In this document: positions 1,715 through 51,408 of the stretch, in pieces
Numbering within the stretch: the stretch's first letter is position 1
Layout of the letters: each line of letters begins with the position of its first letter
Virus record (IMG/VR): IMGVR_UViG_3300023296_001674
Direction: 5' to 3' (one strand)
DNA length: 64,000 nucleotides
Source of the DNA: a virus
Program-made: the position numbers and the translations under genes
The notes under the pieces: generated by a model
Told to the model about the DNA's origin: nothing
The model's database searches: none
Seen by the model: only the letters and a program-made list of their open reading frames with translations

Positions 1715-1716
1715 GT

Positions 1717-1730: not shown

Positions 1731-1785
1731 AGAAGTATAATAAATACTTAATATTATATAAATTGCGCAGGTATGGATATTACAT

Positions 1786-2046
1786 ATGATTAAAAAAACT
1801 AAGAGCCTCCTTGATGAACTTGACGAAATCGTTCCAACCAAGGACAAGCATATTGTTGTAGAAGCACGTGCACAACATTTTATTGCCAGTGGAATCAATC
1901 TATTAGAAATGATTGAAGAGCATTTTACTCCTGAAGAGGCTGATGAATTATCTCGTCGCCTCTTTAATTCATTAAAAGGTAGAAGCCCCGCAAAATTCCA
2001 ACGCAAAATGCAACAAATTCAGGAAAACAATAGTAACAATGAATAA
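1786..2046 (+). CDS. Hypothetical late protein
   Basis: ORF behind a late promoter motif. Confidence 0.7.
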   Translation: MIKKTKSLLDELDEIVPTKDKHIVVEARAQHFIASGINLLEMIEEHFTPEEADELSRRLFNSLKGRSPAKFQRKMQQIQENNSNNE

Positions 2047-2593
2047 AGTTGACGATATGCGCAAATTGATGGAAACTATATCTCATGGTGAACAAGATGA
2101 CATCAATGAGGCCGGTGGAGTTATTGACAAAACTTTAGCGAAATTTGGAAACAAACGCGCTAAAGGTAAAGTTGATGTCAACAATGAAAAAAACAGCATA
2201 GAAGATGGTTGGAAAGAATTCGCAGGAGCGCAAGATTTCGATAATAAGAATGTTGAAGGATTTAAAGATTTCCTACAATTTTGGAATTTTAATGGCCCTG
2301 AAATAGATTCTATTGTTACAGAACCATTCAATATTAAACAATCATTGAAAAATGCTGCAAAAATTCAACACAAATCAGGCAAGGGTGTAACGGGTGAACG
2401 TGATGGTCGACCAGCGCCGACACCAAGTAACGATGATTATAAATCAATTATTAAATTTTATACAAATGATTTAAAAGGAAATGTTGCATCTTTAGAATTG
2501 GAAATGGCTGCAATTAAAAATCCGAAATTGATAAGTGGTGATCCACTTGCATCATTGGGTTATGCATTCATGAAAGCCAACGGCAAAGGATAA
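2039..2593 (+). CDS. Hypothetical head-associated protein
   Basis: DMRKLMET N-terminus and INE candidate processing site; C-terminal LASLGYAF resembles the LQKLGIAI end of the next gene. Confidence 0.55.
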   Translation: MNKVDDMRKLMETISHGEQDDINEAGGVIDKTLAKFGNKRAKGKVDVNNEKNSIEDGWKEFAGAQDFDNKNVEGFKDFLQFWNFNGPEIDSIVTEPFNIKQSLKNAAKIQHKSGKGVTGERDGRPAPTPSNDDYKSIIKFYTNDLKGNVASLELEMAAIKNPKLISGDPLASLGYAFMKANGKG

Positions 2594-2596
2594 CAT

Positions 2597-3790
2597 ATGC
2601 ATAGCAACATACGAGATTTTATATCAGTTATCGACGATAATATGAATACCCCCGATAATATAATATTATTGGAGAGTGATTTTGTTAATCCATCTACAGA
2701 ACTTACAGACGATCAAATAAAGCAAATATTTGTCATCATAAGCCAAGCGGCAGCTTATAAAAAACTCCGTGGCAACCTTAAAGGTTATAAACCTTCTTTA
2801 AAAACCAATAAAGTAACAAACGAAGAGTTAATAAACGAACTCGATCCATTTGGTGGAATGGCAAAAGCGACAGATGCACTCATGGCAAAATTTGGATCGA
2901 AAGGTGCAAAGATGGCTCAAGTGGCAAAAGAAACTGCACTAGGGTTATGGAAAAAATGGGAAAAAGATTCAATTAAAGGTGGAATGGTCCCATCTGTTGA
3001 ATCTGTTGCTAGATGGGTAAATGATGAAGAATTTGATGCAGATTTGATAGATGCTGCATTTAGAGGGGTTGGTGTTCCTAATGTAAAAAATTCATTGAGA
3101 AATATAAGCACGGTTGATAGATTGCCATTAACACAATGGATGGATGAAAATAATATAAAACCTGGTGCTTTAAATGGAATTGTATTAAAAGATTATTTGT
3201 CTGATATTGATGTACAAGATCGCGATGTTGATGCGATATTGGATGGCATTGGATTAAAAAATACTGGCACTGTGATATCGCGAGTTCAATTGAAAAAATT
3301 GGAAAAAGCATTAGATGCATACATACCATCTGAAGAACCCGAAGGCGAAGTTGCCACTGATGTTGACGTTGATGCTAATACTAGCACCAATACCAATTCT
3401 GGAACGCCATTAGATGGTGGATGGCTTGCTCGCGACGTATATTCTTATATTATTAAAAATTATAATGTAGACGATAAAGATGATTTGGCTAATGAATTCA
3501 AAGCAGCCAAGGTTAAGAATGTAGATGACGAAATGAGTGATGATCAAGTAAGAAAGGTGTTAAATTCTGTAAAAGATGATGAAAAAAATATGTTTTCCGT
3601 GGCTGATGATGCATCGAAATCTTCTGATGAAATAATGAAAACAACACAAGAAATAGTTAAAGATATGGGAAGCAGTATAAAAAAAGCAACATCTGTGGGT
3701 AAAGAATTTGTAAAATCTGGTGATATATCATCGACTAGTGAACTTCAGAAACTTGGTATTGCTATATTAACTGCACGAAAGAAAATATAA
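2597..3790 (+). CDS. Hypothetical head-associated protein
   Basis: Long ORF in the late block; LLES candidate processing site. Confidence 0.55.
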   Translation: MHSNIRDFISVIDDNMNTPDNIILLESDFVNPSTELTDDQIKQIFVIISQAAAYKKLRGNLKGYKPSLKTNKVTNEELINELDPFGGMAKATDALMAKFGSKGAKMAQVAKETALGLWKKWEKDSIKGGMVPSVESVARWVNDEEFDADLIDAAFRGVGVPNVKNSLRNISTVDRLPLTQWMDENNIKPGALNGIVLKDYLSDIDVQDRDVDAILDGIGLKNTGTVISRVQLKKLEKALDAYIPSEEPEGEVATDVDVDANTSTNTNSGTPLDGGWLARDVYSYIIKNYNVDDKDDLANEFKAAKVKNVDDEMSDDQVRKVLNSVKDDEKNMFSVADDASKSSDEIMKTTQEIVKDMGSSIKKATSVGKEFVKSGDISSTSELQKLGIAILTARKKI

Positions 3791-3799
3791 GGTATAAAA

Positions 3800-5134
3800 A
3801 TGAGCATTAAAAAATTCAATGAAGAAACTACATCTATAGCCGGTTCTGATATTGAACCAACATTGCGATATTTATCACCTATTGTTGGTATTGCGTATGA
3901 ATCTGTGTTAGATAAATCTGGAAAAATAGTAAAACGTGGATTAGAAGATTGCACATTGGGCACCTCTTCAAAATCTGGAACTGGCGCTTTCGGTAAGCAC
4001 GGAACTGTTGGTGATATTGATATAGTTATCGATGAATCGTCACATGATACTAATAGTTTTGTTTCACGATTAGTCAATAAGTTAGGACCAGATAAAATAG
4101 GAAAACCTGTTAATGGTGGTATAACTATACCAACGAAAGTTAATGTTGGCGGCGCTGAAGGAGCAAATTTGGTCGAGGTTGATTTTATAATCGGTGATCC
4201 TGAATTATTAACCTTTACGCATCACTCACCAGACCCAACGAGTTTAAGTGAATATAATGGTATCGCTCGCAATGAAATGATGCGTGCTGTATTACAAGAT
4301 TCACGCCGCCAAGTGCGCGATCCTGAAACAAAAGAGATTATGGCATTGGTTGGACCTGCATATTTTCTTGATAAAGGATTTGTTCAAGAATGGCGTCACT
4401 TTCCAATGAAAGGTGATGGTAGCGGACGTCAAAGTATTAATAAACCAATAAGTAAAAGTGAATTCACTGAAACATACCCTGATCACACTGGAAATGAAAA
4501 ACCATTGATGCTTTCGAAGCCTCGTGAAATGATGGATTATATGTTCCCTAATGCAAACACCAAAATTGAAGAATATGATTGTTTTGAAACTATAAGAGAT
4601 TTAGTTATAGAACATAAGCCAAAAAATGCTGAATCTATATTCAATTTATTTGCACAAAGTATGCATCGTAAAGGACAGCCAGTGCCGCAGGGTTTGGTCG
4701 TAGAATGTCGTCAAATGGTTGAAAAATCTAACGTTCTTACTGAAGTTCGTGATATAAGCCTTAATCGTGTGATGGAATCTGTTGTAAGACGTGGAAAATT
4801 TGAAGATTTTAGAAAATCTTGCTTGAATACATTAACAGATAATCGAAAACTTGATCATTTTACAAAACCTAAAGCAACTGCTGATAATATGCCACTAGAA
4901 GGATTGACATATCTTATTAATAAGTGCGGCATGATGAATGAGTGGAATGATTTGAACAAAAATGATTATGGAACCAATTATCATCACAAAGTTTCTGATT
5001 TTGGTGCATTTTATGAAGATTTATGCGAACTTATCGGCGAAGATAACTTTATGTTCGTTGCAGAACATTATGGATTAAAGATAAATTCTGATTCTTTTAT
5101 CAATAGTTTAATCGAAATGGAATATGATGGCTAA
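3800..5134 (+). CDS. Pol-beta-fold nucleotidyltransferase-like protein (paralog of 44866..45765)
   Basis: GK..TVGDIDIV, VEVDFIIG and FTHHSP..SEY.G motifs shared with the 44866 ORF. Confidence 0.6.
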   Translation: MSIKKFNEETTSIAGSDIEPTLRYLSPIVGIAYESVLDKSGKIVKRGLEDCTLGTSSKSGTGAFGKHGTVGDIDIVIDESSHDTNSFVSRLVNKLGPDKIGKPVNGGITIPTKVNVGGAEGANLVEVDFIIGDPELLTFTHHSPDPTSLSEYNGIARNEMMRAVLQDSRRQVRDPETKEIMALVGPAYFLDKGFVQEWRHFPMKGDGSGRQSINKPISKSEFTETYPDHTGNEKPLMLSKPREMMDYMFPNANTKIEEYDCFETIRDLVIEHKPKNAESIFNLFAQSMHRKGQPVPQGLVVECRQMVEKSNVLTEVRDISLNRVMESVVRRGKFEDFRKSCLNTLTDNRKLDHFTKPKATADNMPLEGLTYLINKCGMMNEWNDLNKNDYGTNYHHKVSDFGAFYEDLCELIGEDNFMFVAEHYGLKINSDSFINSLIEMEYDG

Positions 5135-6870: not shown

Positions 6871-7080
6871 ATGCGTGCGTATGAATTTATTAAAGAAAAC
6901 GCAAGTTCTGGCGGAACCTCTGCAAGTAGTGTAGCTACGGTTGTAAAACCACAAGTTACTACAGCAGAAGGTGAAACATTATTTGGTGGTGATGCAAATG
7001 ACCACCCTGCATATGGTGATTCCACTAATGTAACAGTTATTCGTAGACCAAGTCCTACTGCGGAAGCTAATAAGAAATAA
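6871..7080 (+). CDS. Small protein with MRAYEFIKE leader (capsid-targeting-like)
   Basis: GAGG RBS, late promoter near 6832, leader similar to the MRAWELYE family. Confidence 0.7.
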   Translation: MRAYEFIKENASSGGTSASSVATVVKPQVTTAEGETLFGGDANDHPAYGDSTNVTVIRRPSPTAEANKK

Positions 7081-9625: not shown

Positions 9626-9937
9626 ATGCTTTTATCTGAACTATTCGACGATGATAATGTCGAACCTAGCCAAAAATTAAACGAAGGTGCTAAAATAGCA
9701 TGGGCGCGGGTAGGTAATAAAGTTGTAAAAAAATACCGTTGTAGTAGTGGTCCAAGACTTGGTAGAATAGTCGCCAATCCAACACAATGTAATAAACCCG
9801 TCGATTTGAAAAAACGTATGAAATTCAAGCAAACTAAATTGGCTAAAGGTTCGAGAATGTCTCGAAAAGCAGGACGTACAAAACGTCGCAATCCTGCCAG
9901 TTTACGCATTCAGCGCATGAATAAAGGAATGAAATAA
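9626..9937 (+). CDS. Small basic late protein
   Basis: MLLSELF leader, LNE site, Lys/Arg-rich C-terminus, RC.SGPR.GRIV motif. Confidence 0.65.
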   Translation: MLLSELFDDDNVEPSQKLNEGAKIAWARVGNKVVKKYRCSSGPRLGRIVANPTQCNKPVDLKKRMKFKQTKLAKGSRMSRKAGRTKRRNPASLRIQRMNKGMK

Positions 9938-33149: not shown

Positions 33150-33986
33150 ATGGCTTTACAAATAGAAGACGCTATACCTGCGTCGAAAAAATCTAAAAAA
33201 ACGAAAAAATCCACCAAATCATTATCAACTATTCGTCTGCATTTCATATTGGATGAATCTGGCAGTATGGATGAATGCCGCCAATCGACTATTGATGGAT
33301 TTAACGAATATATCAATGGTTTACGGAAAGATACGAACAAATATTATGTTTCCTTGACTAAGTTTGAGGGTGGCAATATCAAAACTGTATTTGGTGATGT
33401 CAATCTTAAAAATGTTCGCAATATAACCAATGACGATTTTATTCCTGATGGAATGACTAATCTTAACGATGCAATTGGTGAAACAATCACAAAAATGCAA
33501 AATTCAAATATAAAAACACCACATAGTACATTGATTGTTATTTTGACTGATGGTAAAGAAAATGATTCGCGCAAATGGACGCGTGATGGTGTGGCAGAGT
33601 TGATTAAAATCACTGAAAAAGATGGTTGGACTGTCACCTTTCTTGGTGCTAATATTGACACTCAGGCAGTGAGTCGTGGATATGCTATTAGTGCGGATAA
33701 TGCACGATCATATACAACGAAAGGTATGCGTAACACTATGAGAAATCTCAGTGAAGCAACTGTGATGTATGCAGCCAGTGCATCTAGAGGTATATCTACA
33801 ATGGATATGTTTAGTGCGGAAAATACTGGTATGTCTGAAGCGGATTGGATGGAAGAAGATGCAGCATCTATAGATAAATTGGCTGCGACTATTGATTCAA
33901 ATGGACATAATATTGATGGTTCATTGAAACCAGAATTGAAAGATATTATTATTGGTGCAAATCAAGGAGACACTAAAAATGTCTGA
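33150..33986 (+). CDS. von Willebrand factor A domain protein
   Basis: ILDESGSM MIDAS, GMT.L.DAIG, ILTDG.EN.S, FLGAN. Confidence 0.9.
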   Translation: MALQIEDAIPASKKSKKTKKSTKSLSTIRLHFILDESGSMDECRQSTIDGFNEYINGLRKDTNKYYVSLTKFEGGNIKTVFGDVNLKNVRNITNDDFIPDGMTNLNDAIGETITKMQNSNIKTPHSTLIVILTDGKENDSRKWTRDGVAELIKITEKDGWTVTFLGANIDTQAVSRGYAISADNARSYTTKGMRNTMRNLSEATVMYAASASRGISTMDMFSAENTGMSEADWMEEDAASIDKLAATIDSNGHNIDGSLKPELKDIIIGANQGDTKNV

Positions 33987-34896
33987 TTATCAAGTAGAAG
34001 TATTGGTTCGTGGTCGTCCTGTAAAAGTTTTTAAACATAAAGGCGATCAATTCATAGAAGGTAGAAACGGTTCATCGTTTGAACTTCGCTTAACTAACAA
34101 CACATGGCACCAAGTTGAAATGGTTGCCAGTGTTGATGGGTTAAGTGTTACAGATGGTGAAGAATGTGGTTCTGAATCGATTGGTTATATTGTCCCTCCA
34201 AAAGAATCTGTTACGATTCCGGGATGGAAGTTGCCAAATAATAAAGCTGCTGAATTTGTATTTGAAGACAAGAGAAATAGTTATTCAAACCAAGTTGGCA
34301 AAGGCACGCAAAATGTTGGTGTTATTGGATTTATGGTATTTGCTGAAAAACCGCCAGCACCACCGACGCCACCGCCTACTAGAAGCGTTAGAGGTGGCTT
34401 TCCAAATCCTTACCAGCCAACTACGCCGTGGAAACCATTCCAACCAATGTGGGCGAGTAATCAAACGAAGGGTATGTCTAATAGTGCGGAAACACTTGAA
34501 CTTAAAGGTGGAACCACGCGTGGCATGCAGGACACAACACCATTGGGTGCTACAAATAATGTTATGGATTCGATGCAACATAGCGCTGTTAATATAAGTG
34601 CATCATGCTCGCCGTGCGATATAATATTTGAATCTGATGAAGAAGGAACTGATAAGTTTGAAATCGGAACAGGTTGGGGTGATGAAATTGATCATAAGGT
34701 TGTTGTTATCGAGTTTGAACGAACTGATAAGTATAATCCTGACACTATCATTACATTGTTCTATGATTCGAAAAAGGGATTAATTTCGAGGGGGATTGAA
34801 ATCACAAAGACTAAAAAACGAAAAAATCCTAAACTACCTAATGCATTTCCAACATATAATAATACTGGTTGTACGCCTCCACCGGGTTGGAAATAG
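33979..34896 (+). CDS. Conserved hypothetical vWA-associated protein
   Basis: AGGAG RBS before MSDYQ; SVDGL, IPGW, NVGVIG, GTGWG motifs. Confidence 0.7.
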   Translation: MSDYQVEVLVRGRPVKVFKHKGDQFIEGRNGSSFELRLTNNTWHQVEMVASVDGLSVTDGEECGSESIGYIVPPKESVTIPGWKLPNNKAAEFVFEDKRNSYSNQVGKGTQNVGVIGFMVFAEKPPAPPTPPPTRSVRGGFPNPYQPTTPWKPFQPMWASNQTKGMSNSAETLELKGGTTRGMQDTTPLGATNNVMDSMQHSAVNISASCSPCDIIFESDEEGTDKFEIGTGWGDEIDHKVVVIEFERTDKYNPDTIITLFYDSKKGLISRGIEITKTKKRKNPKLPNAFPTYNNTGCTPPPGWK

Positions 34897-34912
34897 TATA
34901 AAAAAAGAGCAC

Positions 34913-35917
34913 CTAATCGGTGCTCTTTTTCTTTTTAACATGATTTTTTCTTTGCTCGGGCGTTAATGAAGCCCAATATTTTTTAACACCATCGCCTGAT
35001 TTTTTTCGTCGTTCTTTTTTTTCTTGATTTGATAGATTTTTATAATGATCGGAATATTTTTTTGCTGATTTCTTTTTTCTATTTGTTATTTCTTCTTTTG
35101 TTAGCAAATCTAAAGATTTTTGCTGACCTTTTTGTATATTTTTACCAACTTGAATTTTTTCTTTTTTTGTATAAGATGCCCATCTTTTTATATTTTCTTC
35201 TGTTCTTTGTGTAGAGTCTATATTATCGCTAATTTTTTTACCTTGTTCTTTTTTTCCTTCATCGGATAGAGAAACCCACCATTTGATATAACCATTTTTA
35301 AATTTTTCGATATGTTGATTGTGTTTTTCTTCGGTTAGACCATCCCAATATTTTTTATTACCTTTTTGTAGCCTATCGATTATGATTTTTTGTTCTTTAT
35401 TTGATAATTTACCCCAATATTCATTACATTTTTGTCTTATTTTTTCATTTCTACTTTCTTTTTGTTCATCCGATAAAAATTTATAAGTATGACCACCTTT
35501 GCCACCGGGATTCATGTTATATCCATTTATACCAAATGATTCGTGATGATGAATCCAAAATATTTCAAGATCGTTAAGTATATTTACATCGTCGCATTCA
35601 TCTATGATTTCATATGTAAATTCGACGAACCCGTATTTTATTAGAGCATGATGAAATGCAAGTTCAGGGAGGTATTCACCAGTTCCGCGACGTTTATGGT
35701 ATTTATATCTACGATTTTCTGATATAGGATGTATATCTTTCCCTATATATGATTTATTATTATTGTTATTAGTAAATTTATAAATGAACATTTTAATATA
35801 CCTCTTATTTCTATTCCTGCTGTATTTATCAAAAGGGGTGAAATATGGTGGTATTAGAAACAGTGCATTAATCATATTGTGATAAATATTAATATATGTT
35901 ATAAGAAGGAATGTCAT
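34913..35917 (-). CDS. GIY-YIG homing endonuclease with helical repeats (real start probably near 35791)
   Basis: FIYKFTN..N.KSYIG, H..L.KYG..F, E.FWI, GYNM.PGG; W..L..E repeats. Confidence 0.85.
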   Translation of the reverse strand: MTFLLITYINIYHNMINALFLIPPYFTPFDKYSRNRNKRYIKMFIYKFTNNNNNKSYIGKDIHPISENRRYKYHKRRGTGEYLPELAFHHALIKYGFVEFTYEIIDECDDVNILNDLEIFWIHHHESFGINGYNMNPGGKGGHTYKFLSDEQKESRNEKIRQKCNEYWGKLSNKEQKIIIDRLQKGNKKYWDGLTEEKHNQHIEKFKNGYIKWWVSLSDEGKKEQGKKISDNIDSTQRTEENIKRWASYTKKEKIQVGKNIQKGQQKSLDLLTKEEITNRKKKSAKKYSDHYKNLSNQEKKERRKKSGDGVKKYWASLTPEQRKNHVKKKKSTD

Positions 35918-36488
35918 GAAAATATATGAGTTATTTGAGACTAGTCAAAATACCGGATTTAAACTTTTCGTTGACCTTGATGGAGTCTTGGTCGACTTCG
36001 AAAAAGGTGTTTCTGCGTTTATGGCGGATGACATGTCGGATAAGGGTTATAAAAATTTACCGGTTATCCAAGGATATGCTATGGGCAATAATAAACAGAG
36101 TCGCGCATTCTGGAAGAAAGTTGAGATGATCGAAGAATCGGATGCTATTGCATTATGGACAAATTTAGGATGGATGTCAGATGGTAAAAAACTTTGGGGT
36201 TATATCAATGGTTACAATCCAGTAATATTGAGTTCACCGGGAACATCATCGAGACATATTATTGAAGCTGGTAAAAAAATATGGATTGATAGACATTTAT
36301 CACCCAAGCCATCATATATATTTGAACCTGATAAGTTTAAGCACGCAAAAGGTAAACCCGGTATACAGCATATACTTATTGATGACAGTAAGAAGAAATT
36401 AGACCCATGGGAAGCTGCGGGTGGCATTGGTATATTTCATACATCTGCCTCTGATACTATAAAACAACTAAAAAATTGGGGTTTTTAA
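35916..36488 (+). CDS. HAD-family 5'(3')-deoxyribonucleotidase-like protein with MKIYELFE leader
   Basis: FVDLDGVLVDF, ILSSP, K..W, LIDD...W..AGG.GI.H. Confidence 0.85.
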   Translation: MKIYELFETSQNTGFKLFVDLDGVLVDFEKGVSAFMADDMSDKGYKNLPVIQGYAMGNNKQSRAFWKKVEMIEESDAIALWTNLGWMSDGKKLWGYINGYNPVILSSPGTSSRHIIEAGKKIWIDRHLSPKPSYIFEPDKFKHAKGKPGIQHILIDDSKKKLDPWEAAGGIGIFHTSASDTIKQLKNWGF

Positions 36489-36489
36489 T

Positions 36490-37539
36490 ATGAGAGCATG
36501 GGAATTATATGAAAATCAAATAATAAATGAATTAAATGTTGAATATCGCGGTGATACAGTCAATGATGAATCTTTTGATATTATTGTTCATCGTGGTAAA
36601 ATATGGATGTATGATTCAAGTGATGATAATAATAATGAAGCACTTAAAAAGAGTATTATTGATAATTTAAAAATAAACATTGAAAGGCCAGAAGATTTAG
36701 ACATTGAAGATTTGATGGCGCATGTTATGGAAGATCGACCTGATATTATACATGGTCAAATTGTTGATGGTGATGATTTGTATTTAAGTAATCATGCCAC
36801 TATCTCAAAAAGCCCACGTTCATCAAAAGCAATAAAAGATATAGTAAAACATTTCGATTTAAGCCGTGTTATGAAATCTGATACCACTGGAGAAAAAGAG
36901 GATGTTATACATCGCAGTGAAATGCAAGGAAAAGTGCCTGATATAGCATTTCACGGAACAAGTTCTGATAATATACGAAATATACTCAATAAAGGAATTA
37001 TGCCTGTTGAACATGGTAATTTTGAAGATATAAAATTTCCCGATTTGGTTTTTGTTGCAACTGATCGAAATTTTGTTGATTATCATGCAACCAGTCAAGC
37101 GAAAGCAAAAGAGGCCACGCCAATTGTATTGAAATTAAAAATACCAGATAAAAATAAACTTGTATTAGATTTTGATGTAGCAGTGAGAATGTACGGAAGT
37201 GAGCATCCTGAATTAATTGATGCGGGTTATGATAATATAGATAGTTCAGTATTTAATAACGAAGAAATGGCGAAGCATATACAGGCGGTTAATAAGGGAA
37301 CAGATTTAAATACCGAGGTTGGTGTTTTTGGATATAAAGGACGTATTCCAGCAAATCATATATTAGAAATATATATAGCAGCCGATGCTGATTGGACAGT
37401 TGCACCAGATAGCGTAGAATGGATGGAAATGGATGACAAATCGGAGTTGTGGAAAGCTCTTGATATGATAGATGCAATCGGATATTATGATCAACATGAA
37501 CAAATCGAATGGGAAGATGATGAGGATGAAAACTTATGA
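36490..37539 (+). CDS. MRAWELYE-leader protein with C-terminal ADP-ribosyltransferase-like domain
   Basis: AFHGTSS.NI.NIL.KGI, VFVAT, VLKLKIP, YKGRIP..HI. Confidence 0.65.
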   Translation: MRAWELYENQIINELNVEYRGDTVNDESFDIIVHRGKIWMYDSSDDNNNEALKKSIIDNLKINIERPEDLDIEDLMAHVMEDRPDIIHGQIVDGDDLYLSNHATISKSPRSSKAIKDIVKHFDLSRVMKSDTTGEKEDVIHRSEMQGKVPDIAFHGTSSDNIRNILNKGIMPVEHGNFEDIKFPDLVFVATDRNFVDYHATSQAKAKEATPIVLKLKIPDKNKLVLDFDVAVRMYGSEHPELIDAGYDNIDSSVFNNEEMAKHIQAVNKGTDLNTEVGVFGYKGRIPANHILEIYIAADADWTVAPDSVEWMEMDDKSELWKALDMIDAIGYYDQHEQIEWEDDEDENL

Positions 37540-37868
37540 GAGCATGGGAATTATATGAAGGTAAAAAACATGTTGGATATAAAGTTATGCGATATGAAAA
37601 CGGCAATTTAATTGCTGGTGCGGACTCGCGTCAAATATTTCCATCAAAAATAGGGTCTTCTATTCAAATGAAGGGTAATGGTATATATCTTGGAACCAAT
37701 AAACAATATGTATTGGATTATTATTCTGGATTGGCGGACGATGAACGATTGTTGACATTTGAATTTGATGAAGATGATATAACTACTGGAAACCTAACCG
37801 ACCAACAGGTTGAAGTTAGTGTTTCTAATGCTATATTAAAGAATATAGAAGAGTTTGACCAACAGTAA
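37536..37868 (+). CDS. MRAWELYE-leader protein, ART-like fold possible
   Basis: GYK..R, GIYL, EV.V pattern; identical 24-nt leader. Confidence 0.55.
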   Translation: MRAWELYEGKKHVGYKVMRYENGNLIAGADSRQIFPSKIGSSIQMKGNGIYLGTNKQYVLDYYSGLADDERLLTFEFDEDDITTGNLTDQQVEVSVSNAILKNIEEFDQQ

Positions 37869-38309
37869 TTGAGTGAATATAAAATGCACGACACTGACCA
37901 AGGCAAGGTGTTTCAAAATCCAACTTCATCGGGCATTGCTGGATTGTTGAATACGCATGGTATACTTAGGGGTATATTTTCAAATAACACATCTTGGGTC
38001 TGGAATGCATACAACTCGACGCATGATTATATGGGTGATGAGCTAACTAATAGTGGATTTGATATAGCGCGGTTTGAAAATGATAGATTTGATTTTGTGA
38101 TATCAAATAAGCCACAAGTTGACAATTTGGAAGAATGGGATAATATGCGTGAAGTGTCGGATGGTGTATGGTCACAAGTATATGGGGAAGATTTAAACGA
38201 CGCGATGAAGAAAAAGCGTTTTTCTAAAATGTTTCCAAAACCAGTCGACGAAAATGAAAAAGTCGACCTTCCTGATATTGAAGTCGGTGATGAATTAAAA
38301 GATAAATAG
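37869..38309 (+). CDS. In-frame continuation of 37536 after a single TAA; hypothetical
   Basis: CAG TAA TTG AGT GAA in the same frame; ends in LPDIEVGDEL. Confidence 0.5.
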   Translation: MSEYKMHDTDQGKVFQNPTSSGIAGLLNTHGILRGIFSNNTSWVWNAYNSTHDYMGDELTNSGFDIARFENDRFDFVISNKPQVDNLEEWDNMREVSDGVWSQVYGEDLNDAMKKKRFSKMFPKPVDENEKVDLPDIEVGDELKDK

Positions 38310-38327
38310 TATTGGAGGTATGATGCT

Positions 38328-39149
38328 ATGAGATATTTAATATATGCACTTTTGAACCCAACAACTGACATGCCATTTTATATTGGATGGACTGACACTA
38401 AACAAAAAGGTATTAAACGACCATTTGAGCACTTTAATGAAGAACGACGTCAGGGTGAAAAAATAACATCGGGAAATAGATTGAAGCTGAATACTATACG
38501 CAAAATGCGTAAAAATGACATAGAGCCGAGTGTTGAAGAGATATATTACACCGATGATTTTGATCATTCTTTAGATATAGAAAAAATGTTTATATCACAT
38601 TGGGGCAGACGGGATAAAAACGAAGGAATATTAACCAATCTAACCGATGGTGGGCAAGGAACGGTGGGTGTAAAAGATTCGTTGGAAACACGGCGAAAAA
38701 AATCTATCGGTAGAATAGGAAAAAAGCATACTGAATACTCCAAGCAGTTAATCAAAGAAAAAAGAAAACTTCAATCGCCGACAATATATTCGGATGAAAC
38801 TAGAAAACAAATGAGCAAGAATGCTTGGATGCGCAATAATAAAGGAAAAACATATGAAGAGATGTATGGCATAAATAAAGCAAACGAAAAGAAAAAAAAT
38901 CAATCTGATTATCTTCGTTTATATAGAGCGAATGAAGAAAATGAAGAAAAGCGTAAACTTGCTCATAGGTTGACATGGATTAAAAAAATGAAAAATGTTT
39001 ATATTGATATATTTAGGTTATTAGACGATGGTATTAAACAGTATATTATTGTTGATATGTTAAATGTAAGCGTTGATACTGTTCGTAAGGCGAGATTGAA
39101 TCGCGCTGATATTGAGCATGATATTAATATTATAACAATCGAGGGTTAA
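38328..39149 (+). CDS. GIY-YIG homing endonuclease with NUMOD3 repeats and C-terminal HTH
   Basis: YLIYAL..P...PFYIG, E...I..WGR, LTNLTDGG.G, ETR.K.S repeats. Confidence 0.85.
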   Translation: MRYLIYALLNPTTDMPFYIGWTDTKQKGIKRPFEHFNEERRQGEKITSGNRLKLNTIRKMRKNDIEPSVEEIYYTDDFDHSLDIEKMFISHWGRRDKNEGILTNLTDGGQGTVGVKDSLETRRKKSIGRIGKKHTEYSKQLIKEKRKLQSPTIYSDETRKQMSKNAWMRNNKGKTYEEMYGINKANEKKKNQSDYLRLYRANEENEEKRKLAHRLTWIKKMKNVYIDIFRLLDDGIKQYIIVDMLNVSVDTVRKARLNRADIEHDINIITIEG

Positions 39150-39155
39150 ATAACT

Positions 39156-39866
39156 ATGCGTGCATGGGAAATATTAGAGAATGATGATGTATTAAATTTA
39201 AATCCGATAAAAACTGGTGATACCGTTTATGTTGGAAAATTTAAAAATCGCAAAGCTGAAGTAAAGGGGTTTGAAACGGATGATCATGGTCAGCCCGTAC
39301 TCAATACAACCAAAGGAAAGCATAAATTATTTAAACCAAGAATTGATAAACTTAAACCTAAAAACTTGGACGAAGGTAGCCACGAAGACGACGCTGAAGC
39401 CTATGCCGCACAACATGGATTAGAGATCGCTGGATGGGAAGGAAGTGGTGATATGGGTGAGGCTTATGTCACTAATAAGAATACCATTATTAAAGTAACT
39501 ACTGACAAAACTGAAATGGCAATGGCAGCAAAGTTGGTTGGTCAAACATTGTCCAATGTTGCTGATGTATACGATGTTCAAGACCATATTATACATATGG
39601 AATACTTGGACACCACGGGCGTAGATGATGTATATGGTGAAGTATCACAATATGATAACGGTGATGGCGTAGAATACATCGATGCCGATGAACATGAAGG
39701 TATAAGCGAAGAAGCCATAAAAATGATACAAGACCTTAGTTATGGAATACATGAACTTGGTAGGAATGGCATTCAAAATCTTGATATCAAGGATGATAAT
39801 ATCGGCAAGAAACCAAATGGTGATTATGCGATGTTTGATATGTCGGATGCTAAAAGAGGTGCATGA
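39156..39866 (+). CDS. MRAWEILE-leader protein: small beta module plus protein-kinase-like domain
   Basis: GSGDMGEAY (Gly loop), IIKVT, E, MEYL, DIKDDNIG catalytic loop, MFD. Confidence 0.7.
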   Translation: MRAWEILENDDVLNLNPIKTGDTVYVGKFKNRKAEVKGFETDDHGQPVLNTTKGKHKLFKPRIDKLKPKNLDEGSHEDDAEAYAAQHGLEIAGWEGSGDMGEAYVTNKNTIIKVTTDKTEMAMAAKLVGQTLSNVADVYDVQDHIIHMEYLDTTGVDDVYGEVSQYDNGDGVEYIDADEHEGISEEAIKMIQDLSYGIHELGRNGIQNLDIKDDNIGKKPNGDYAMFDMSDAKRGA

Positions 39867-39868
39867 TA

Positions 39869-40789
39869 ATGAGAGCATGGGAACTTTTTGAAAATGAAAT
39901 AAACGTGAAAGTTAAAGATGCGTCAGATACATTTGGTAGAGATGGTGCAGAGCAAGTGTTTTATACTGATACTGCGACAAAATCGCGTATAATAATCGCA
40001 CGTAATCATAGACCTGATGGTTATGCATCAGTTGTGGAATTATTAGTTCCAGAAGAATTTAGAGGGACGGGCATTGGTAAAAAATTATTAGATAGAGCGA
40101 TGCAAGATAATCCAAAGATTATGGGTCAAGTGTCATCAAAAGCGGCGGCAGTTAATGCTTATAAGGCTGGACGTCGACCATATGAGCAACCAGACGCATC
40201 ATTAGATGATGTATTTAAATCGATAGATCAAGATTCGTCGGTTAATCTAATGACTAATGAATCCGCCGCACATTATAATGATTATTTTGATGCTAACGCA
40301 TTAAAAGACCCATCAAAGACAAAATATGGCTCGAATGAAAAACTTATTACGATGACGCCTGATGAATTTTTAAGTATGGCTGAACATATACCGGCTGGTG
40401 CTTCTACTGATAAAGCAGAAAAAGTTAAGGGGTTGATAGATTCTGGTACGAAATTTGATTCTGTGCCACATATAGGCTTTACACATGATGGTAACGGTGT
40501 AGCCACCGCAGTAGGACACGAAGGTCGTCATAGAGTGATGGCACTTAAATCTTTAGGAATAAATGAAATACCAGTATTGTTAACATCTATAGGTGGCGGA
40601 GGTGGCAAAATACGATGGGATCAACAATCAGAAAAGACTCGCGATACAATAGAAGGTGTTTGGCCTACGGTACTTAAAGGCGAAAGTGGTGGTTCTATAA
40701 ACTTTCCAATACCAGATATGAGACAGGCGAATGAATCATTGACAGTTTTGTCGCCACATGATAAATTAACGAACAATAGATACAGTTAA
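39869..40789 (+). CDS. MRAWELFE-leader protein: GNAT acetyltransferase plus ParB/sulfiredoxin-like domain
   Basis: L.VPEEFRGTGIGKKLL..A (GNAT motif A); MTPDEFL ... GHEGRHRVMAL..LG...IPV. Confidence 0.75.
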   Translation: MRAWELFENEINVKVKDASDTFGRDGAEQVFYTDTATKSRIIIARNHRPDGYASVVELLVPEEFRGTGIGKKLLDRAMQDNPKIMGQVSSKAAAVNAYKAGRRPYEQPDASLDDVFKSIDQDSSVNLMTNESAAHYNDYFDANALKDPSKTKYGSNEKLITMTPDEFLSMAEHIPAGASTDKAEKVKGLIDSGTKFDSVPHIGFTHDGNGVATAVGHEGRHRVMALKSLGINEIPVLLTSIGGGGGKIRWDQQSEKTRDTIEGVWPTVLKGESGGSINFPIPDMRQANESLTVLSPHDKLTNNRYS

Positions 40790-40800
40790 AGGATAGTGAT

Positions 40801-42063
40801 ATGAGAGCATGGGAATTATATGAAAATGCAGGCGGCGATGCATTGCCATCAGAACAGATGGATTTGTTTCAGTCGTTGCTGACTAAACCCGTAACGGATA
40901 TTGGCGCGTTGTATAAGAATGCAGGGCATGATTTCCGTTTTGTTGGTGGTAGCGTTCGTGATTTATTTTTAGGTAAAACACCAAAAGATAAAGATTTTTC
41001 CACGACTGCTACACCACAAGAAAGTAGCAAGTTGCTGCGCGATGCAGGATACACCACTATCGAAAACGAAAATCAATTGGCGCATGGAACTATCATTGTT
41101 AAAATCAAAGGCGAAGATGATTTTGAAATCACCACTTTGCGTGCTGATGAAGAAACTGATGGTCGTCATGCGACTGTAAAGTTTGTAACTGATTGGAAAA
41201 CCGATGCAGCAAGACGTGATTTGTCTTATAATGCAATGAGTCTGGATTTGGAAGGCAATCTTTATGATTATTTTCATGGTGTAGATGATTTGAAAAAAGG
41301 AACATCTAATTTTGTTGGCGATTCTGATCAAGATTCTGAGCAACGCGCTACGCGCCGTATTGAAGAAGACTATCTTCGTACACTGCGCTATTTTAGATTC
41401 CAAGGTAGATTGCCAAAACCGCAGTTTGATGAAGGTATTTTAAAAGCAATTAAGAACACTGCGTATGGTTTGAACCAATTGTCTGGTGAGCGCGTTTGGG
41501 ATGAAATGCAAAAAATCTTAAGTGGTGATCATACTCGTAAAATCTTGGATATGATGCATAAAACAACGGTTGATGAGAATATCGGTTTGCCTCTTAGATA
41601 TATTGATAATATTGATGTTGTAAAAAAGCATACCAATAACTCTGCCACAATTTTGGCATCATTGATTAAGGATGAAGATCAGTTGAGAGAAATCGCTTCT
41701 ACTGATGGATGGGCACTGTCTAATACTGCTGAAAACATCATCTTGTTTATTATCAATCATCGTAAAAATGATATGTCTTATACAGATGTGAAAAATATGT
41801 GGTTCAATCCAAAAGTTGATAATATGTATATCAGCGAGTTGATGAAATATATGGGAAAAGATGGAATACTTAATAAATTACATCAAGAGAAGGTTGAAAA
41901 GTTTCCAGTTGCGGGTAAAGATTTAATTGCAGCAGGATTGACACCAGGTCCACAAATGGGCGCATTGTTAAATGATCTTAATAAAGAATGGGTAAAATCT
42001 GGACACACTAAAACTTGGACTGATGATGAAATATTGGATATTGTGAGGAAGGCACAAAAATGA
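40801..42063 (+). CDS. cca: CCA-adding tRNA nucleotidyltransferase with MRAWELYE leader
   Basis: FVGGSVRD..LG..PKD.DF.T, EITTLR, DAARRDL..NAM, RI.EDYLR.LRYFRF, SGERV..E. Confidence 0.92.
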   Translation: MRAWELYENAGGDALPSEQMDLFQSLLTKPVTDIGALYKNAGHDFRFVGGSVRDLFLGKTPKDKDFSTTATPQESSKLLRDAGYTTIENENQLAHGTIIVKIKGEDDFEITTLRADEETDGRHATVKFVTDWKTDAARRDLSYNAMSLDLEGNLYDYFHGVDDLKKGTSNFVGDSDQDSEQRATRRIEEDYLRTLRYFRFQGRLPKPQFDEGILKAIKNTAYGLNQLSGERVWDEMQKILSGDHTRKILDMMHKTTVDENIGLPLRYIDNIDVVKKHTNNSATILASLIKDEDQLREIASTDGWALSNTAENIILFIINHRKNDMSYTDVKNMWFNPKVDNMYISELMKYMGKDGILNKLHQEKVEKFPVAGKDLIAAGLTPGPQMGALLNDLNKEWVKSGHTKTWTDDEILDIVRKAQK

Positions 42064-43142
42064 GAGCATGGGAATTATATGAAAATAGTGATTACGATGG
42101 TGGTGGATGGTTAAATGTGAAATCTAAAACATTTATCCCCACCAAAGGGTGTTATCACGTTCTTGCTATATTTCATAACATGGAAAAATTTGGGTTAACT
42201 CCAGAAAAAATGAAATCTATTCCAGCCTTTTCCAAATGGTTTGAATTGGACTGGGCAAATATAACTGGTAACAACGATCCAGAAGATTTGAAGTCGTGGT
42301 GGATGGATTTAGACCCACATGGCAAGATTCCAACTTTAAGTGGAAATGGGGTAGAACATAATGCGGATGGTAATGAATATTTACTCGACGGTGATATGGA
42401 AATTATTGAATGGATGAATAATCAAGGATGGGTTAGAACAATACGCCATAAAGATATGGGTAAAATGGAAACATCTATTCAAGGTAAAGATTTGAAACAA
42501 ATTCAACGTGCGGCAAATTTTTTTGATAAAGAATATGGAATTGAAACATTATATTATGATACTAATAATTTAAGAGACGGAAAAGAATTAAATGGATATG
42601 AATTAAACCATTTTTTGAAATATGGAAATATTAATTTTAGAAAAATGGATGAAGGTGATATAGTATTATCAAATGCTGAAAAGCAATGGATTAATCCATC
42701 TTCCAAAAATTTGGTGGTTGTTTCATCGACTATGCATCACACACAAATGGCACATGCATCACCTGAAAAGTTCGGACTTTCTGGAAATCTATTTAAAGAT
42801 TATGAATATCCAATAGACGACAATGGAAAACCGGCGCAATTCGATGTTAATGTAGCAACAAAAATGTTTGATGCTGGTTGGGTAAGAACAAGAACATCTG
42901 CCGCTGGGTTTGGTATGGGGGCAGATGTTCATTGCATTGAATTAAACGTCGCCGCTATGGCATTGCGCATGCTTAAAGAAAAATTCAATCATTTATCTGT
43001 AGCCACCATAGAGTTAGGATATGACACCACTCCTACAAATACAACACATGAACTTAGAAACGATGAAAATGGTCGTGGGCCACTTAAGACATTTATGAAA
43101 ACTGGTAAAATCGTAAAGCCGTCTAGGATGAATAATTTTTAA
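42060..43142 (+). CDS. MRAWELYE-leader protein with two internally repeated domains
   Basis: W.N..SK...H...EKFGL...GWVR occurs twice, separated by KMDE. Confidence 0.7.
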   Translation: MRAWELYENSDYDGGGWLNVKSKTFIPTKGCYHVLAIFHNMEKFGLTPEKMKSIPAFSKWFELDWANITGNNDPEDLKSWWMDLDPHGKIPTLSGNGVEHNADGNEYLLDGDMEIIEWMNNQGWVRTIRHKDMGKMETSIQGKDLKQIQRAANFFDKEYGIETLYYDTNNLRDGKELNGYELNHFLKYGNINFRKMDEGDIVLSNAEKQWINPSSKNLVVVSSTMHHTQMAHASPEKFGLSGNLFKDYEYPIDDNGKPAQFDVNVATKMFDAGWVRTRTSAAGFGMGADVHCIELNVAAMALRMLKEKFNHLSVATIELGYDTTPTNTTHELRNDENGRGPLKTFMKTGKIVKPSRMNNF

Positions 43143-43159
43143 AATAAAAGGATAATAAT

Positions 43160-43876
43160 ATGTTATTAATGGCTAATGGGTGTAGCAATACACACGGTAT
43201 GGATTCATATAACGGCGAGGTGTGCGACGAGAATAGGAATCTTGCATTTCCTAAGCATATTGCCGATCATTTTGATATGGATTATCTTAATATAGCACAT
43301 CCATGTGTTAGTAATGAATATATTGCACATACCACTATTGATTGGATCGAAAATTGGATTGAAGACGGTGGCACATGTGAAGAATTGTTTATAGTAATTG
43401 GTTTGACCGCTAGCGTTAGAAAGACGTTAGTTAGTGATGAATATGGAATATATACATGGAATACTGGTGTAAAAAATGGCGGAATTAGTGCATTTACTGC
43501 TGAACAATTTGATATTGTAGAAGATTATTTTAAATTGTGGTTAGAGTGTGATACAAGTTCTGATTATCACAACTCAACAAGTTACCATCACGTTAATTAT
43601 TTGCATTTATATTTGAAAGAAAAAAATATAAAACATTTCATGATCAACACTTGTAATATGTTCACTGATTATTTACCAGAAAATAGACAATATATGAAAA
43701 AATTAGCTACGTATGTAGAATGTGCATCTTATAACGATAGAGGATGTAATATGTATCCATATTACAAAAATTATAAACCCGCCCCTAGAGGACATATAAC
43801 GGGTGAGACACATGGTTTATTAGGTCAAAAATGCATTGAATATATTACAAATCATGAATTATTGATTGACAAATAA
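43160..43876 (+). CDS. SGNH/GDSL-like hydrolase
   Basis: ANGCS.T.G, N.A....SN..I, H.....H. Confidence 0.7.
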   Translation: MLLMANGCSNTHGMDSYNGEVCDENRNLAFPKHIADHFDMDYLNIAHPCVSNEYIAHTTIDWIENWIEDGGTCEELFIVIGLTASVRKTLVSDEYGIYTWNTGVKNGGISAFTAEQFDIVEDYFKLWLECDTSSDYHNSTSYHHVNYLHLYLKEKNIKHFMINTCNMFTDYLPENRQYMKKLATYVECASYNDRGCNMYPYYKNYKPAPRGHITGETHGLLGQKCIEYITNHELLIDK

Positions 43877-43916
43877 CACCAGCATGATATAATCTATTTT
43901 TGATGAAGGATTAATA

Positions 43917-44726
43917 TCATGGGCGATTTTTACAGTTCTCATTGTGCCATCGATTTAGATTCCCCAAATTCGCCTCTTTATCACAATATTTACATTTTAT
44001 CTTGATATGTTTTTTGCCATAAAAGCCATTTTTTTCGCCTTTGGTTGCTTCGCTTAACTTTTTTCTTGTTTCTTCAGAAGCATGTTTGCCTTTTTTTGCT
44101 TCACTCATTTTTTTAAGAATTTCATCAGAATAAACATCGGTTCTTCCTTTATTCCATGGTATACAATTCTTATGTGCGTCGCTTTGTTTTTTACGAGTTT
44201 CTGTTGATGTCGATTTGCCATAATTGGGATTTTTCACACCTTTGGTTGCTTTACTTATTTTTTGTTTAGTTTTCTCAGAATGATAGTTGCCTTTCGATGC
44301 TTCACGCATTCTTTTAATAGATTTTTTTGTGTGCTTTCTACCCTTGAGTGCTTTGCTTATTTTTTTACAAGTTTCGTTTGAATGTGATTTTCCTTTTTGT
44401 GATTCGTTTAGATTTTTTCTATTTACTTCATATAATTTTGCATTAATATATCTTTTATGTTTATTTTTATTTGACACGCCCATCATATTAAACGCAAATA
44501 TCATTTTACGCTTATTATTCCCTTCGGTGAATTTTGTTAATAGACAATGACAAATGAAATGCTCACGGGCAGTCAGGATGGCGATGTTGATTTTATCATT
44601 ATTTCCACCTAAAGATTTTGGTATAATGTGATGTTTTTCGGTATAGATATTTTCTGATAATGTTCTTGACTTAGCACTATTGATTATATTATAATACCAC
44701 TTGGTATATTTATTTTGTAAATACAT
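43917..44726 (-). CDS. HNH homing endonuclease with NUMOD3 repeats
   Basis: EKHHIIPKSLGG.N...N...LT.REHF.CH; H..ET..KIS repeats. Confidence 0.9.
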   Translation of the reverse strand: MYLQNKYTKWYYNIINSAKSRTLSENIYTEKHHIIPKSLGGNNDKINIAILTAREHFICHCLLTKFTEGNNKRKMIFAFNMMGVSNKNKHKRYINAKLYEVNRKNLNESQKGKSHSNETCKKISKALKGRKHTKKSIKRMREASKGNYHSEKTKQKISKATKGVKNPNYGKSTSTETRKKQSDAHKNCIPWNKGRTDVYSDEILKKMSEAKKGKHASEETRKKLSEATKGEKNGFYGKKHIKIKCKYCDKEANLGNLNRWHNENCKNRP

Positions 44727-50212: not shown

Positions 50213-50616
50213 TGTCACAATTATCATTATCAAATGAACCAGGATTCATAATGTCATATGCTGATTTATTAGACGATGAACAATATACAGATAAATTCAT
50301 TGATATCGCCAACGAAGTCGATGATATAAATTTAATAGGAATAGCCGTTGATATTATAAATGATATCGGTGATGATAAATCTAATGAAGATATAGTGCAT
50401 GCTATTTTTACTGTATGCCATTCCGAAGAAGTATATAGCGAATTCGCTAACGATGGACTCATCGATGATAAAATAATGCAACTGTGTGATATATTAATTA
50501 ATATATATACAATGCTAGATTTACCATTGTTATGCAATGATTATCGCGAATTAAAAAAAGATTTAATAGAAGAAATTAACAACACAAAATCGTTTTTTGA
50601 CGATATAAGCACTTAG
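50212..50616 (+). CDS. Hypothetical protein
   Basis: ORF; C-terminal KSFFDDIST. Confidence 0.6.
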   Translation: MSQLSLSNEPGFIMSYADLLDDEQYTDKFIDIANEVDDINLIGIAVDIINDIGDDKSNEDIVHAIFTVCHSEEVYSEFANDGLIDDKIMQLCDILINIYTMLDLPLLCNDYRELKKDLIEEINNTKSFFDDIST

Positions 50617-50626
50617 GAGAAATATT

Positions 50627-51238
50627 ATGACAACAGTGGCACAATTATTAAGACATGTATTTAAAGAAAAAAATTATGATATAGAAGTCATTGAATGTAC
50701 CGGCGATGACGTTGATCCTATGAATTTCGAGCCTCTATATGGAAAATTGAAATTTAAATGCGGTGAAAAAATGTTAAACGGTATAGGAACTAATGCTGAT
50801 GATAAAAATCCTCATGATCATGATCGTAATGACGTAGCGGAGATTGCTGCGGCGTTATTACAAGAAATAGAATATACATTGGTGGATGAATTTTTGAAAG
50901 AAAATAAACCAGTAAAGACGCCGCGATTAGCAAAACCAAACAACGTGATGCAATTGATAGAAGATAGGTTTTATGATCGCGGTTATAGTGATATCAATGT
51001 GAATATAGAACGCACCGACGACGATGTTAATATATTGAAGTTTAGTATAGGCACTTATGTGTTTGATGTGACCGCTAAGAATTTCGCTCTTGATATTATC
51101 ACACCATATTATAAAGGTCGTGACATCTCCAATAAAAAAATTTGGAACACAATGGTAGTAGAAGTTGCAGCAGCAGCCGTGGAAGAATTGGAATATGAAA
51201 TGAGACATAACTTTTTAAACAAAAATAAAAAAGTTTAA
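50627..51238 (+). CDS. Internally duplicated protein with capsid-spine-helix-like motif
   Basis: DVAEIAAALLQEIEY.L..EFL and VVEVAAAAVEELEY.M..NFL. Confidence 0.55.
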   Translation: MTTVAQLLRHVFKEKNYDIEVIECTGDDVDPMNFEPLYGKLKFKCGEKMLNGIGTNADDKNPHDHDRNDVAEIAAALLQEIEYTLVDEFLKENKPVKTPRLAKPNNVMQLIEDRFYDRGYSDINVNIERTDDDVNILKFSIGTYVFDVTAKNFALDIITPYYKGRDISNKKIWNTMVVEVAAAAVEELEYEMRHNFLNKNKKV

Positions 51239-51246
51239 GTTTTTAT

Positions 51247-51408
51247 TTGACAATCGAATATCATTATGTTATAAATGATAAATACAATTGATGAAGTGAT
51301 GAACACACTTCGCTAAAACGTTGAAAATCAGCGGTTTTTTAAAAAAGTTCGATAAAATCGAAAAAAAGAGTTGACAAAAAACCAATTTTAGAGTAGATTT
51401 TATAAATA
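51247..51408 (+). promoter_or_regulatory. Tandem sigma70-type/late promoters heading the tRNA array
   Basis: TTGACA-17-TATAAA at 51247; TTGACA-17-TAGATT followed by TATAAATA at 51371. Confidence 0.7.

Follow-up and report, generated by a model that had tools for sequence, protein, structure and literature searches.

An eight-residue leader shared by seven otherwise unrelated proteins of an uncultured jumbo phage is a candidate T4-type capsid-targeting tag

Seven genes on the plus strand of a 64,000-nucleotide stretch of viral DNA (IMG/VR record IMGVR_UViG_3300023296_001674; the whole stretch is referred to here as the window) encode proteins that start with the same 8-residue leader, of consensus M-R-A-W-E-L-Y-E, and that have only residues 1 to 8 in common, the folds downstream being different. 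Analysis of the window, of the contig to which it belongs, and of related phages indicated that this leader is probably a T4-type capsid-targeting tag, which would load enzymes into the phage head for delivery with the DNA. The initial annotation of the window had already read the leader as such an address, and this reading was supported by an S77 prohead protease in the same genome, by the gp21 cleavage consensus at the end of the leader, by the retention of the leader over shuffled cargo, by a late-promoter-like motif, and by the presence of a homologue of one cargo protein in particles of the cultured phage 6E35.1a. In the proposed mechanism, the tagged proteins would dock by their leaders on the scaffolding core as the prohead assembles, a gp21-type S77 protease would cut after the final Glu of [L/I]-x-E and free the enzymes within the head, and infection would release them together with the DNA, to act ahead of any phage gene expression.

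An eight-residue leader at seven gene starts

In the open reading frame (ORF) listing and in a six-frame regular-expression scan, MKIYELFE was found at the start of the ORF at 35916, MRAWELYE at the starts of those at 36490, 37536, 40801, and 42060, MRAWEILE at 39156, and MRAWELFE at 39869, where an alternative start lies two codons upstream (39863; MIM-RAWELFE). These seven start coordinates and leader strings, in the block from 35916 to 43142, were exactly those given in the initial annotation. The scan used the pattern M[RK].[WYF]E[LIFVM].[ED] in six frames of both the window and the whole 194,073-bp viral contig, of which the window makes up bases 97037 to 161036. Such a genome-wide search had been suggested in the initial annotation, and its matches in the whole contig were the seven leaders alone, all on the plus strand and at ORF starts, each 2 to 10 codons past an in-frame stop. 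A looser pattern for the leader DNA gave 8 forward matches in this genome versus 0 for a reversed-pattern control. In the leaders, position 2 is occupied by Arg or Lys, position 4 by Trp or Tyr (seven of seven), position 6 by Leu or Ile, and position 8 by Glu, and all seven end in [L/I]-x-E, as L-Y-E, I-L-E, or L-F-E. In the AlphaFold2 (AF2) model of the 36490 protein, the leader forms a short low-confidence helix that is detached from the fold.

Likeness between the tagged genes ends sharply past codon 8, and their upstream sequences differ. Because the downstream proteins are unrelated, in sequence as well as in fold, the shared leader is neither a product of chance nor a relic of duplication. 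The presence of every copy within 6.2 kb would suit an annotation artifact, or a functionless remnant of recent tandem duplication, but the tag is found on homologous and nonhomologous cargo in independent metagenomes; the comparative data already contradict such an origin, which we regard as scarcely credible.

The leader might instead act as nucleic acid, its 24 nucleotides (nt) serving in translation initiation, in repressor binding, or as a homology patch for cassette exchange. The four MRAWELYE leaders are identical over these 24 nt, ATGA overlaps occur at 37536 and 42060, and three homing endonuclease genes, lying beside or within the block, mark a recombination hot spot, all of which would fit such a role. 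Against it, the codons of the identical copies are those that an AT-rich genome favors, the three other leaders carry synonymous or conservative codon changes (AGA/CGT for Arg; GAA/GAG for Glu), and codons vary inside the array as well as among other contigs (AGA/CGT/CGC for Arg; GCA/GCT/GCC for Ala; TTA/CTT/TTG for Leu), with conservative substitutions at the protein level (W, Y, or F at position 4; L, I, or F at position 6). Since other contigs spell the same leader with different codons, selection acts on the leader peptide. A nucleic-acid element in its place is therefore very improbable; a role in recombination, in addition to the peptide function, is conceivable.

Leader and cargo in related phages

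The sequences of relatives provide the strongest evidence for a putative tag. Outside the leader, the homologues of the tagged proteins (here numbered cargo 1 to cargo 7 in gene order) are just 42 to 65% identical. A homologue of cargo 7, P0002, starts with MRAWELYE and is 65% identical; P0002 and P0006 are encoded by a 247,918-bp relative. Two further homologues of cargo 7 join leaders to parts of the protein, P0003 consisting of MRAYEFLLE, DUF5661, and the first half only and P0004 of MRAWELNE and the second half only. The KOW-like module of cargo 4 follows MRAWELNE, MRASEFIYE, MRAREFIRE, MRAREFIIE, and MKIHDITE in cargo 4 homologues and is C-terminal in proteins starting with MLINEIINE or MKIKDILVE, and the kinase-like domain of cargo 4 also occurs alone, behind MRAYEF. 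The cargo 2 family comprises 398 clusters at 50% identity (E value up to 0.001), nearly all with a tag-like N-terminus, the typical leader being M-R-x-x-E-[IL]-L-N-E. Within the first 16 residues, [LIVMF]-x-E was found in 133 of 143 Met-starting N-termini in this family versus 23% of interior windows. Some cargo 2 relatives qualify as true polyvalent proteins and start with MRLFDLFE or MKLLDLFE; in one of them, P0133, MRLFDLFE precedes three ART-PolyVal domains.

A scan of relatives, which the initial annotation had also proposed, uncovered tagged starts in G002, L106, L094, and these P-series proteins. G002, a 343-kb IMG/VR phage with an S77 protease, has nine gene starts of the form MRAxE[FL] versus 0 in the control and, beside its terminase gene, MKTFAEYLTE and MKTLREYITE, two forms intermediate between its leaders and the T4 tag. 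L106 (SDBT01057047.1), a 5.8-kb metagenome contig, carries eight consecutive tagged genes in 4.5 kb (positions 310 to 4843); a cargo 1 homologue with the leader MRLRELME (42% identical) heads this array, and a cargo 6 homologue in it starts with MRAFELYE (48% identical). The order from the HAD enzyme to the CCA enzyme is alike in L106 and the window, and L106 also encodes a 76-amino-acid (aa) DnaJ-type zinc-finger protein and three unassigned proteins of 192, 219, and 149 aa, the last with a YYHGS motif. A third tagged CCA-type enzyme, with MRAWELFE, was found in L094, and the CCA-adding enzyme is thus tagged in three independent contigs; the Atu_ph07 homologue of cargo 6 has no tag.

The exact leader pattern had no match in IMG/VR. 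A looser pattern gave 43 single matches there, mostly due to chance, which fell at gene starts only in L013, L021/23/39, L029, and L033. G001 and G005 had no further leader-type starts, and the single match in G005 is probably due to chance, because G005 has no S77 protease. In RaK2, pattern matches did not fall at annotated gene starts, and the virion proteins in the 116- to 125-kb region of its record have no such leader.

A homologue of cargo 2 is encoded by the cultured T4-like Vibrio phage 6E35.1a (QZI87545.1, phrog_11974), with the leader MKKLNTFMEE behind CATAAATA. A supplementary table lists this protein with a mass spectrometric "proteomic abundance in viral particle" of 11, the nearby ribonucleotide reductase, topoisomerase, PhoH, and AsiA genes having no abundance value and the tail fibers having values of 52 to 312 (PMC12028318).

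Head genes and the fate of the tagged proteins

The contig is 51% complete by CheckV, and its proteins are also recorded on a 570,750-bp contig; it is therefore a fragment of the genome of a very large T4-core phage. Its head genes, which follow the T4 order, encode an S77 prohead protease (G000 50596 to 51252; PF03420, 78 bits) and a gp23-type major capsid protein (PF07068, 260 bits). PHROGs assigned a portal and a major head protein as well as the protease, whose gene adjoins those of the portal, the scaffold-position proteins (G000 49435 and 51265), and the capsid protein. The capsid gene is closest to those of RaK2/121Q/Atu_ph07/Phosso-type jumbo phages (68 to 75% DNA identity), and in the cultured-phage collection there was no near match to the DNA of the block. 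In the capsid protein, L-M-E43 directly precedes SATAGATSAGNVAT, which aligns with the mature N-terminal region of T4 gp23 (cut after L-T-E65). An ORF in the head module of the same genome, starting with MKLSEFVPKE, is also tag-like. Sinorhizobium phage Phosso, among the nearest cultured capsid relatives, has a single MRASELFE gene, which directly follows the protease gene in the head module. A Phosso gene annotated as encoding a "scaffolding protein" (PV764938.1, 240503 to 241135) matched the S77 prohead protease family PF03420 with an E value of 1.3e-27, so this annotation is probably wrong.

The position of the Phosso gene would be in keeping with tagged proteins that enter the prohead yet are not injected, acting as accessory core, scaffold, or DNA-handling proteins that are then retained or degraded. 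The tag-like MKLSEFVPKE ORF of the head module would fit as well, and in T4 the core proteins are also cut by gp21 (PMC9026906). Nevertheless, this fate is unlikely: ADP-ribosyltransferase (ART), kinase-like, GNAT, nucleotidase, and CCA-adding folds have no obvious use in a capsid, they match the repertoire of injected effectors proposed in the polyvalent-protein paper (PMC5512222), and the T4 proteins so tagged, like T4 Alt, are ejected (PMC9026906). Also unlikely is a job for the leader that has nothing to do with the capsid, such as docking to a chaperone or regulator, timed degradation, or delivery by another route such as the tail. No scaffold contact is visible in the sequence, and the untagged ORFs at 37884 and 43160 in the same operon could be partners in such a job, but it would leave unexplained the constant position of the leader at Met1, its protease-consensus end, its residue-by-residue likeness to the T4 tag, its co-occurrence with S77 proteases, and the presence of a family member in virions.

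Relation to the T4 tag and to other packaging systems

In the T4 record, ipII and ipIII start with MKTYQEFIAE, gp61.1 starts with MKTFKEFIKE, and Alt starts with MELITELFDE. The first 10 residues of IPIII are enough for encapsidation; residues 4 and 7 of the T4 tag are important in targeting and residues 8 and 10 in processing; cleavage by gp21 takes place after L/I-x-E; and such tags are possibly a general route by which T4-like phages load various proteins (PMC9026906). The internal proteins of T-even phages are diverse and have the tag alone in common (PMC3012670). The parallel with T4 capsid targeting that had been drawn in the initial annotation held in the placement of the leader at Met1 of otherwise unrelated proteins, in its [L/I]-x-E end, in the aromatic residue at position 4, and in the accompanying S77 protease and head module. 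The two systems also share a basic residue at position 2, a gp21-type protease encoded in the same genome, and a cargo set that varies among relatives. They differ in that the T4 leader has 10 residues (MKTYQEFIAE) and the present one 8 (MRAWELYE), in that seven tagged genes stand here in one operon and encode mostly enzyme-fold cargo rather than small basic proteins, and in that the phage is of the distant RaK2/Atu_ph07 jumbo type. The leader is too short for descent statistics; 9- and 10-residue forms, MRAREFVTE and MKTFAEYLTE, occur in G002.

Two further tagged candidates lie on the plus strand outside the block. The protein encoded at 6871 to 7080, directly behind three stacked copies of NATAAATA, consists of MRAYEFIKE and 60 further residues (69 aa). 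In both leader and body, this protein (GGTSASSVATVV) parallels T4 gp61.1 (NC_000866, 18966 to 19130; MKTFKEFIKE, GTTSGAVV), and both proteins contain a G-T-(T/S)-S-x-x-V stretch that resembles the N-terminus of mature gp23. The 6871 protein is the apparent counterpart of gp61.1, linking the two tag families. A third mini-ORF that combines a leader with an imitation of the mature N-terminal arm of the major capsid protein was noted at G000 162160 to 162252. The second candidate, a very basic protein of 103 aa that starts with MLLSELFDDD, is encoded at 9626 to 9937 directly behind AATAAATA; it is like a classical T4 internal protein, and its N-terminus resembles that of T4 Alt (MELITELFDE). In T4, an Asp at the cleavage position still permits targeting but prevents processing.

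The gene coordinates of T4 Alt correspond to 682 aa, and its leader shares an -ELF- core with those of cargo 1 and the 9626 protein. Like cargo 2, Alt has an ART fold; it bears a short N-terminal propeptide that gp21 removes, and the protein is carried in the head and injected (PMC9026906). Unlike Alt, cargo 2 has an H-Y-type YHGT motif, not R-S-E; its matches in sequence and fold are Tpt1, DarT, PARP, and toxin ADP-ribosyltransferases, and it falls outside the R-S-E Alt/VIP2 clade that PMC5512222 describes. The polyvalent proteins of phages and conjugative elements treated in that paper (Iyer et al., 2017) resemble the present system in the predicted delivery of effectors with the DNA and in their ADP-ribosyltransferase, GNAT, kinase, nucleotidyltransferase, and nucleotide-degrading domains, but differ in being giant polypeptides anchored by a MuF, portal, or metallopeptidase domain, whereas the block encodes separate proteins that are each tagged; term searches of the paper turned up no N-terminal tag. 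Polyvalent proteins have 2 to 15 disparate effector domains per polypeptide, an arrangement seen in P0133, P0107, and P0019 but not in the cargo encoded here. In phiKZ, 201phi2-1, and SPN3US, likewise, the head takes up many proteins, and propeptides are removed after Glu by a gp21-related protease; these phages belong to another lineage, however, and have a different cleavage motif and longer, nonuniform propeptides, and no short common Met1 tag has been reported for them. A full-text search of the searchable library for the leader strings returned nothing relevant. Term searches of a jumbo-phage survey brought up no passage on such a tag; the survey treats phage CCA-adding enzymes as RNA-repair enzymes, not virion cargo.

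The tagged proteins

The cargo set consists of proteins of 110 to 420 aa, most with enzyme folds, each with one catalytic domain or with one such domain and a small module. The initial annotation had assigned unrelated folds to them, of which the HAD and CCA-adding folds and the ART fold of the 36490 protein stood. Cargo 1 (35916 to 36488; 190 aa) joins MKIYELFE to a HAD-type 5'(3')-deoxyribonucleotidase, as was confirmed by a match to phrog_2643 (E value, 2.6e-21). Cargo 2 (36490 to 37539; 349 aa) joins MRAWELYE to an ART-fold protein (phrog_11974; E value, 2.6e-40). A profile of 56 members of the cargo 2 family matched Tpt1, DarT, and PARP only among PDB sequences, the AF2 model has a predicted local distance difference test (pLDDT) score of 90, ADP-ribosyltransferases made up the top Foldseek matches and almost all of those listed, and an invariant H155-G156-T157 motif lies within YHGT. 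Cargo 3 (37536 to 37868), which has MRAWELYE, is 110 aa in all, and ends with TAA, had no family or PDB match, and the ART-like label that it had been given was not supported by searches of Pfam, NCBIfam, PHROGs, or PDB sequences.

Cargo 4 (39156 to 39866; 236 aa) joins MRAWEILE to a KOW/SH3-like module (KOW E value, 0.09) and a domain for which the Atlas structure neighbors, Pkinase clusters with template modeling (TM) scores of 0.45 to 0.61, suggest the kinase-like character originally assigned. The KOW/SH3-like module (39198 to 39390; GDxVxVGKFKNRKAEVKGF..QPVL.T.KG..KLFKPRI.KL) recurs in many metagenomic phage proteins that share nothing else (P0008 to P0017), either directly behind the leader or at the C-terminal end; it had no match in cultured phages and may be a second adaptor or a nucleic-acid-binding handle. 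Cargo 5 (39869 to 40789; 306 aa) joins MRAWELFE to a GNAT-like acetyltransferase domain and an unassigned C-terminal half. Here the GNAT part of an earlier "GNAT plus ParB" label is suggested by matches to four GNAT families with E values of 4e-4 to 5e-3, each below the cutoff of its own family, and by homologues named GNAT by JGI, one of which also has ART-PolyVal; the ParB part was not borne out by Pfam, NCBIfam, PHROGs, or PDB sequences.

Cargo 6 (40801 to 42063; 420 aa) joins MRAWELYE, through a linker, to a class II CCA-adding-type nucleotidyltransferase. Both the Pol-beta head (PF01743; E value, 4e-29; 102 bits) and the RNA-binding neck (PF12627; E value, 5e-10; 39.5 bits) of class II were found, in agreement with the earlier label. 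The best NCBIfam model was the CCA tRNA nucleotidyltransferase NF009814 (E value, 4e-47), and the specificity of the enzyme (CCA, A, or poly(A)) is not settled by it, because the score of 161 bits compares with a cutoff of 290. Cargo 7 (42060 to 43142; 360 aa) joins MRAWELYE to two diverged copies of one domain, the double domain noted previously being recovered in a comparison of the two halves (E value, 0.003). No fold for cargo 7 was obtained from the Atlas (TM score, 0.31 or less) or from a single-sequence AF2 model (pLDDT, 35), and no match was found in phages or IMG/VR.

Layout and transcription of the block

The block is set off upstream by a strong bidirectional intrinsic terminator (34902 to 34930; stem of 12 to 14 pairs, T runs on both strands), which separates it from a late transcript starting at TATAAATA at 33050. 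That transcript is a separate late unit, with a perfect TATAAATA in front and the strong terminator behind, and encodes a VWA-domain protein (PF00092; E value, 1.5e-7) and a 314-aa proline-rich protein (33150 to 34896, plus strand). Ahead of the first tagged gene lies a GIY-YIG-type homing endonuclease gene (34913 to 35791, minus strand; phrog_314 E value, 3e-20; phrog_5123 E value, 5.7e-12), which diverges from the first tagged gene; Pfam gave no match for it, and no GATAAATA-type motif was found for it. The T4-late-promoter-like motif GATAAATA that the initial annotation had placed before the first tagged gene is present on the plus strand at 35881 to 35888, 35 nt before the ATG at 35916. 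A related role is likely for NATAAATA, which lies 29 to 48 nt upstream of portal, sheath, tube, and head-core genes in this genome and hence is the likely late promoter there.

The tagged genes abut or overlap, with ATGA at 37536 and 42060. Two untagged ORFs on the plus strand accompany them. The first (37884 to 38309; 141 to 146 aa), which had no family match and could encode a partner or immunity protein, is in the same frame as cargo 3, from which it is parted by a single TAA (37866 to 37868); from their sequences, the two could be separate genes, a split gene, or a readthrough pair. The second (43160 to 43876; 238 aa) is the last of the co-oriented block, had no significant family, and is overlapped at its end by a perfect sigma-70-like promoter (43866 to 43893). 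A homing endonuclease gene inside the array (38328 to 39149, plus strand; phrog_314 E value, 1.4e-11) has its own GATAAATA at 38301, 27 nt before its start, and a third such gene (43917 to 44726, minus strand), which flanks the block, has GATAAATA 70 nt before its start. Two of the three homing endonucleases are GIY-YIG-like and one is of the HNH plus NUMOD3 type, and the cargo block looks like a hot spot for cassette exchange. The ORF at 44866 was considered as a relative of the C-terminal domain of the tagged protein P0016 and was rejected on comparison.

There was no good sigma-70-like site in front of the cargo block and no strong terminator inside it, the next strong one being at 45761. 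From these signals, the block from 35916 to 43876 is probably transcribed late from GATAAATA as one operon; GATAAATA, the upstream terminator, and the lack of an internal terminator fit a late operon without proving one.

Discussion

Ranked by weight, the alternatives to a T4-type capsid-targeting tag run from head-internal proteins that are not injected, through a non-capsid peptide and an RNA or DNA element, to a relic of duplication. Several points weigh against the tag itself. The [L/I]-x-E motif has low information content, and the nearest cultured capsid relatives, RaK2 and Atu_ph07, have no such array. At 12 to 48 kDa, the cargoes are bigger than classical internal proteins of T4, which nevertheless packages Alt and engineered fusions. 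The motif GATAAATA leaves late timing unproven, because it also stands before homing endonuclease genes and its first base differs from that of the T4 consensus. The abundance score of 11 for QZI87545.1 is supportive and not proof, since the particles were precipitated with polyethylene glycol and a few nonstructural proteins scored 1 to 4 (PMC12028318), and the leader of that protein is a different one, of 10 residues. Finally, core binding, cleavage, injection, and the roles of the cargo have all been inferred for this phage.

With these points considered, we still favor the capsid-targeting tag. The ART-fold, kinase-like, and GNAT proteins are likely to modify host proteins or nucleic acids, the cargo 1-type nucleotidase is likely to hydrolyze dNMPs, and the CCA-type enzyme is likely to repair tRNA 3' ends or to tail RNA, the repair of tRNA ends being suggested by the enzyme family. 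The tag principle is already established for T-even phages. What is new is the 8-residue form of the tag, the presence of seven tagged genes in one jumbo-phage operon, the enzyme cargo, notably a CCA-adding enzyme, and the marking by the tag of a large modular protein family in uncultured phages.

Proteins injected with phage DNA decide the first minutes of infection and are known for only a few model phages. A recognizable tag would allow injected effectors to be listed from genomes and metagenomes, where a single cargo family already accounts for some 400 clusters at 50% identity. The tag would extend the T4 packaging trick to giant phages and to full-size enzymes, and it points to a packaged nucleotidase, kinase, acetyltransferase, and tRNA nucleotidyltransferase as activities of early infection. 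A short tag of this kind could also load foreign proteins into the capsids of other phages, as the T4 tag already does. More tentatively, and as a possibility that we consider open to real doubt, the M-R-A-x-E-[L/F]-x-E leader may be a portable packaging code in use throughout a large clade of T4-core phages, nearly all of them uncultured. In that case, sequence alone would suffice to list every effector that a phage injects, the recurrent KOW-like module may serve as a second adaptor, and the cargo would include proteins not seen before in virions, such as a CCA-adding enzyme that is supplied in advance to mend or tail RNA 3' ends against tRNA-directed defenses of the host.

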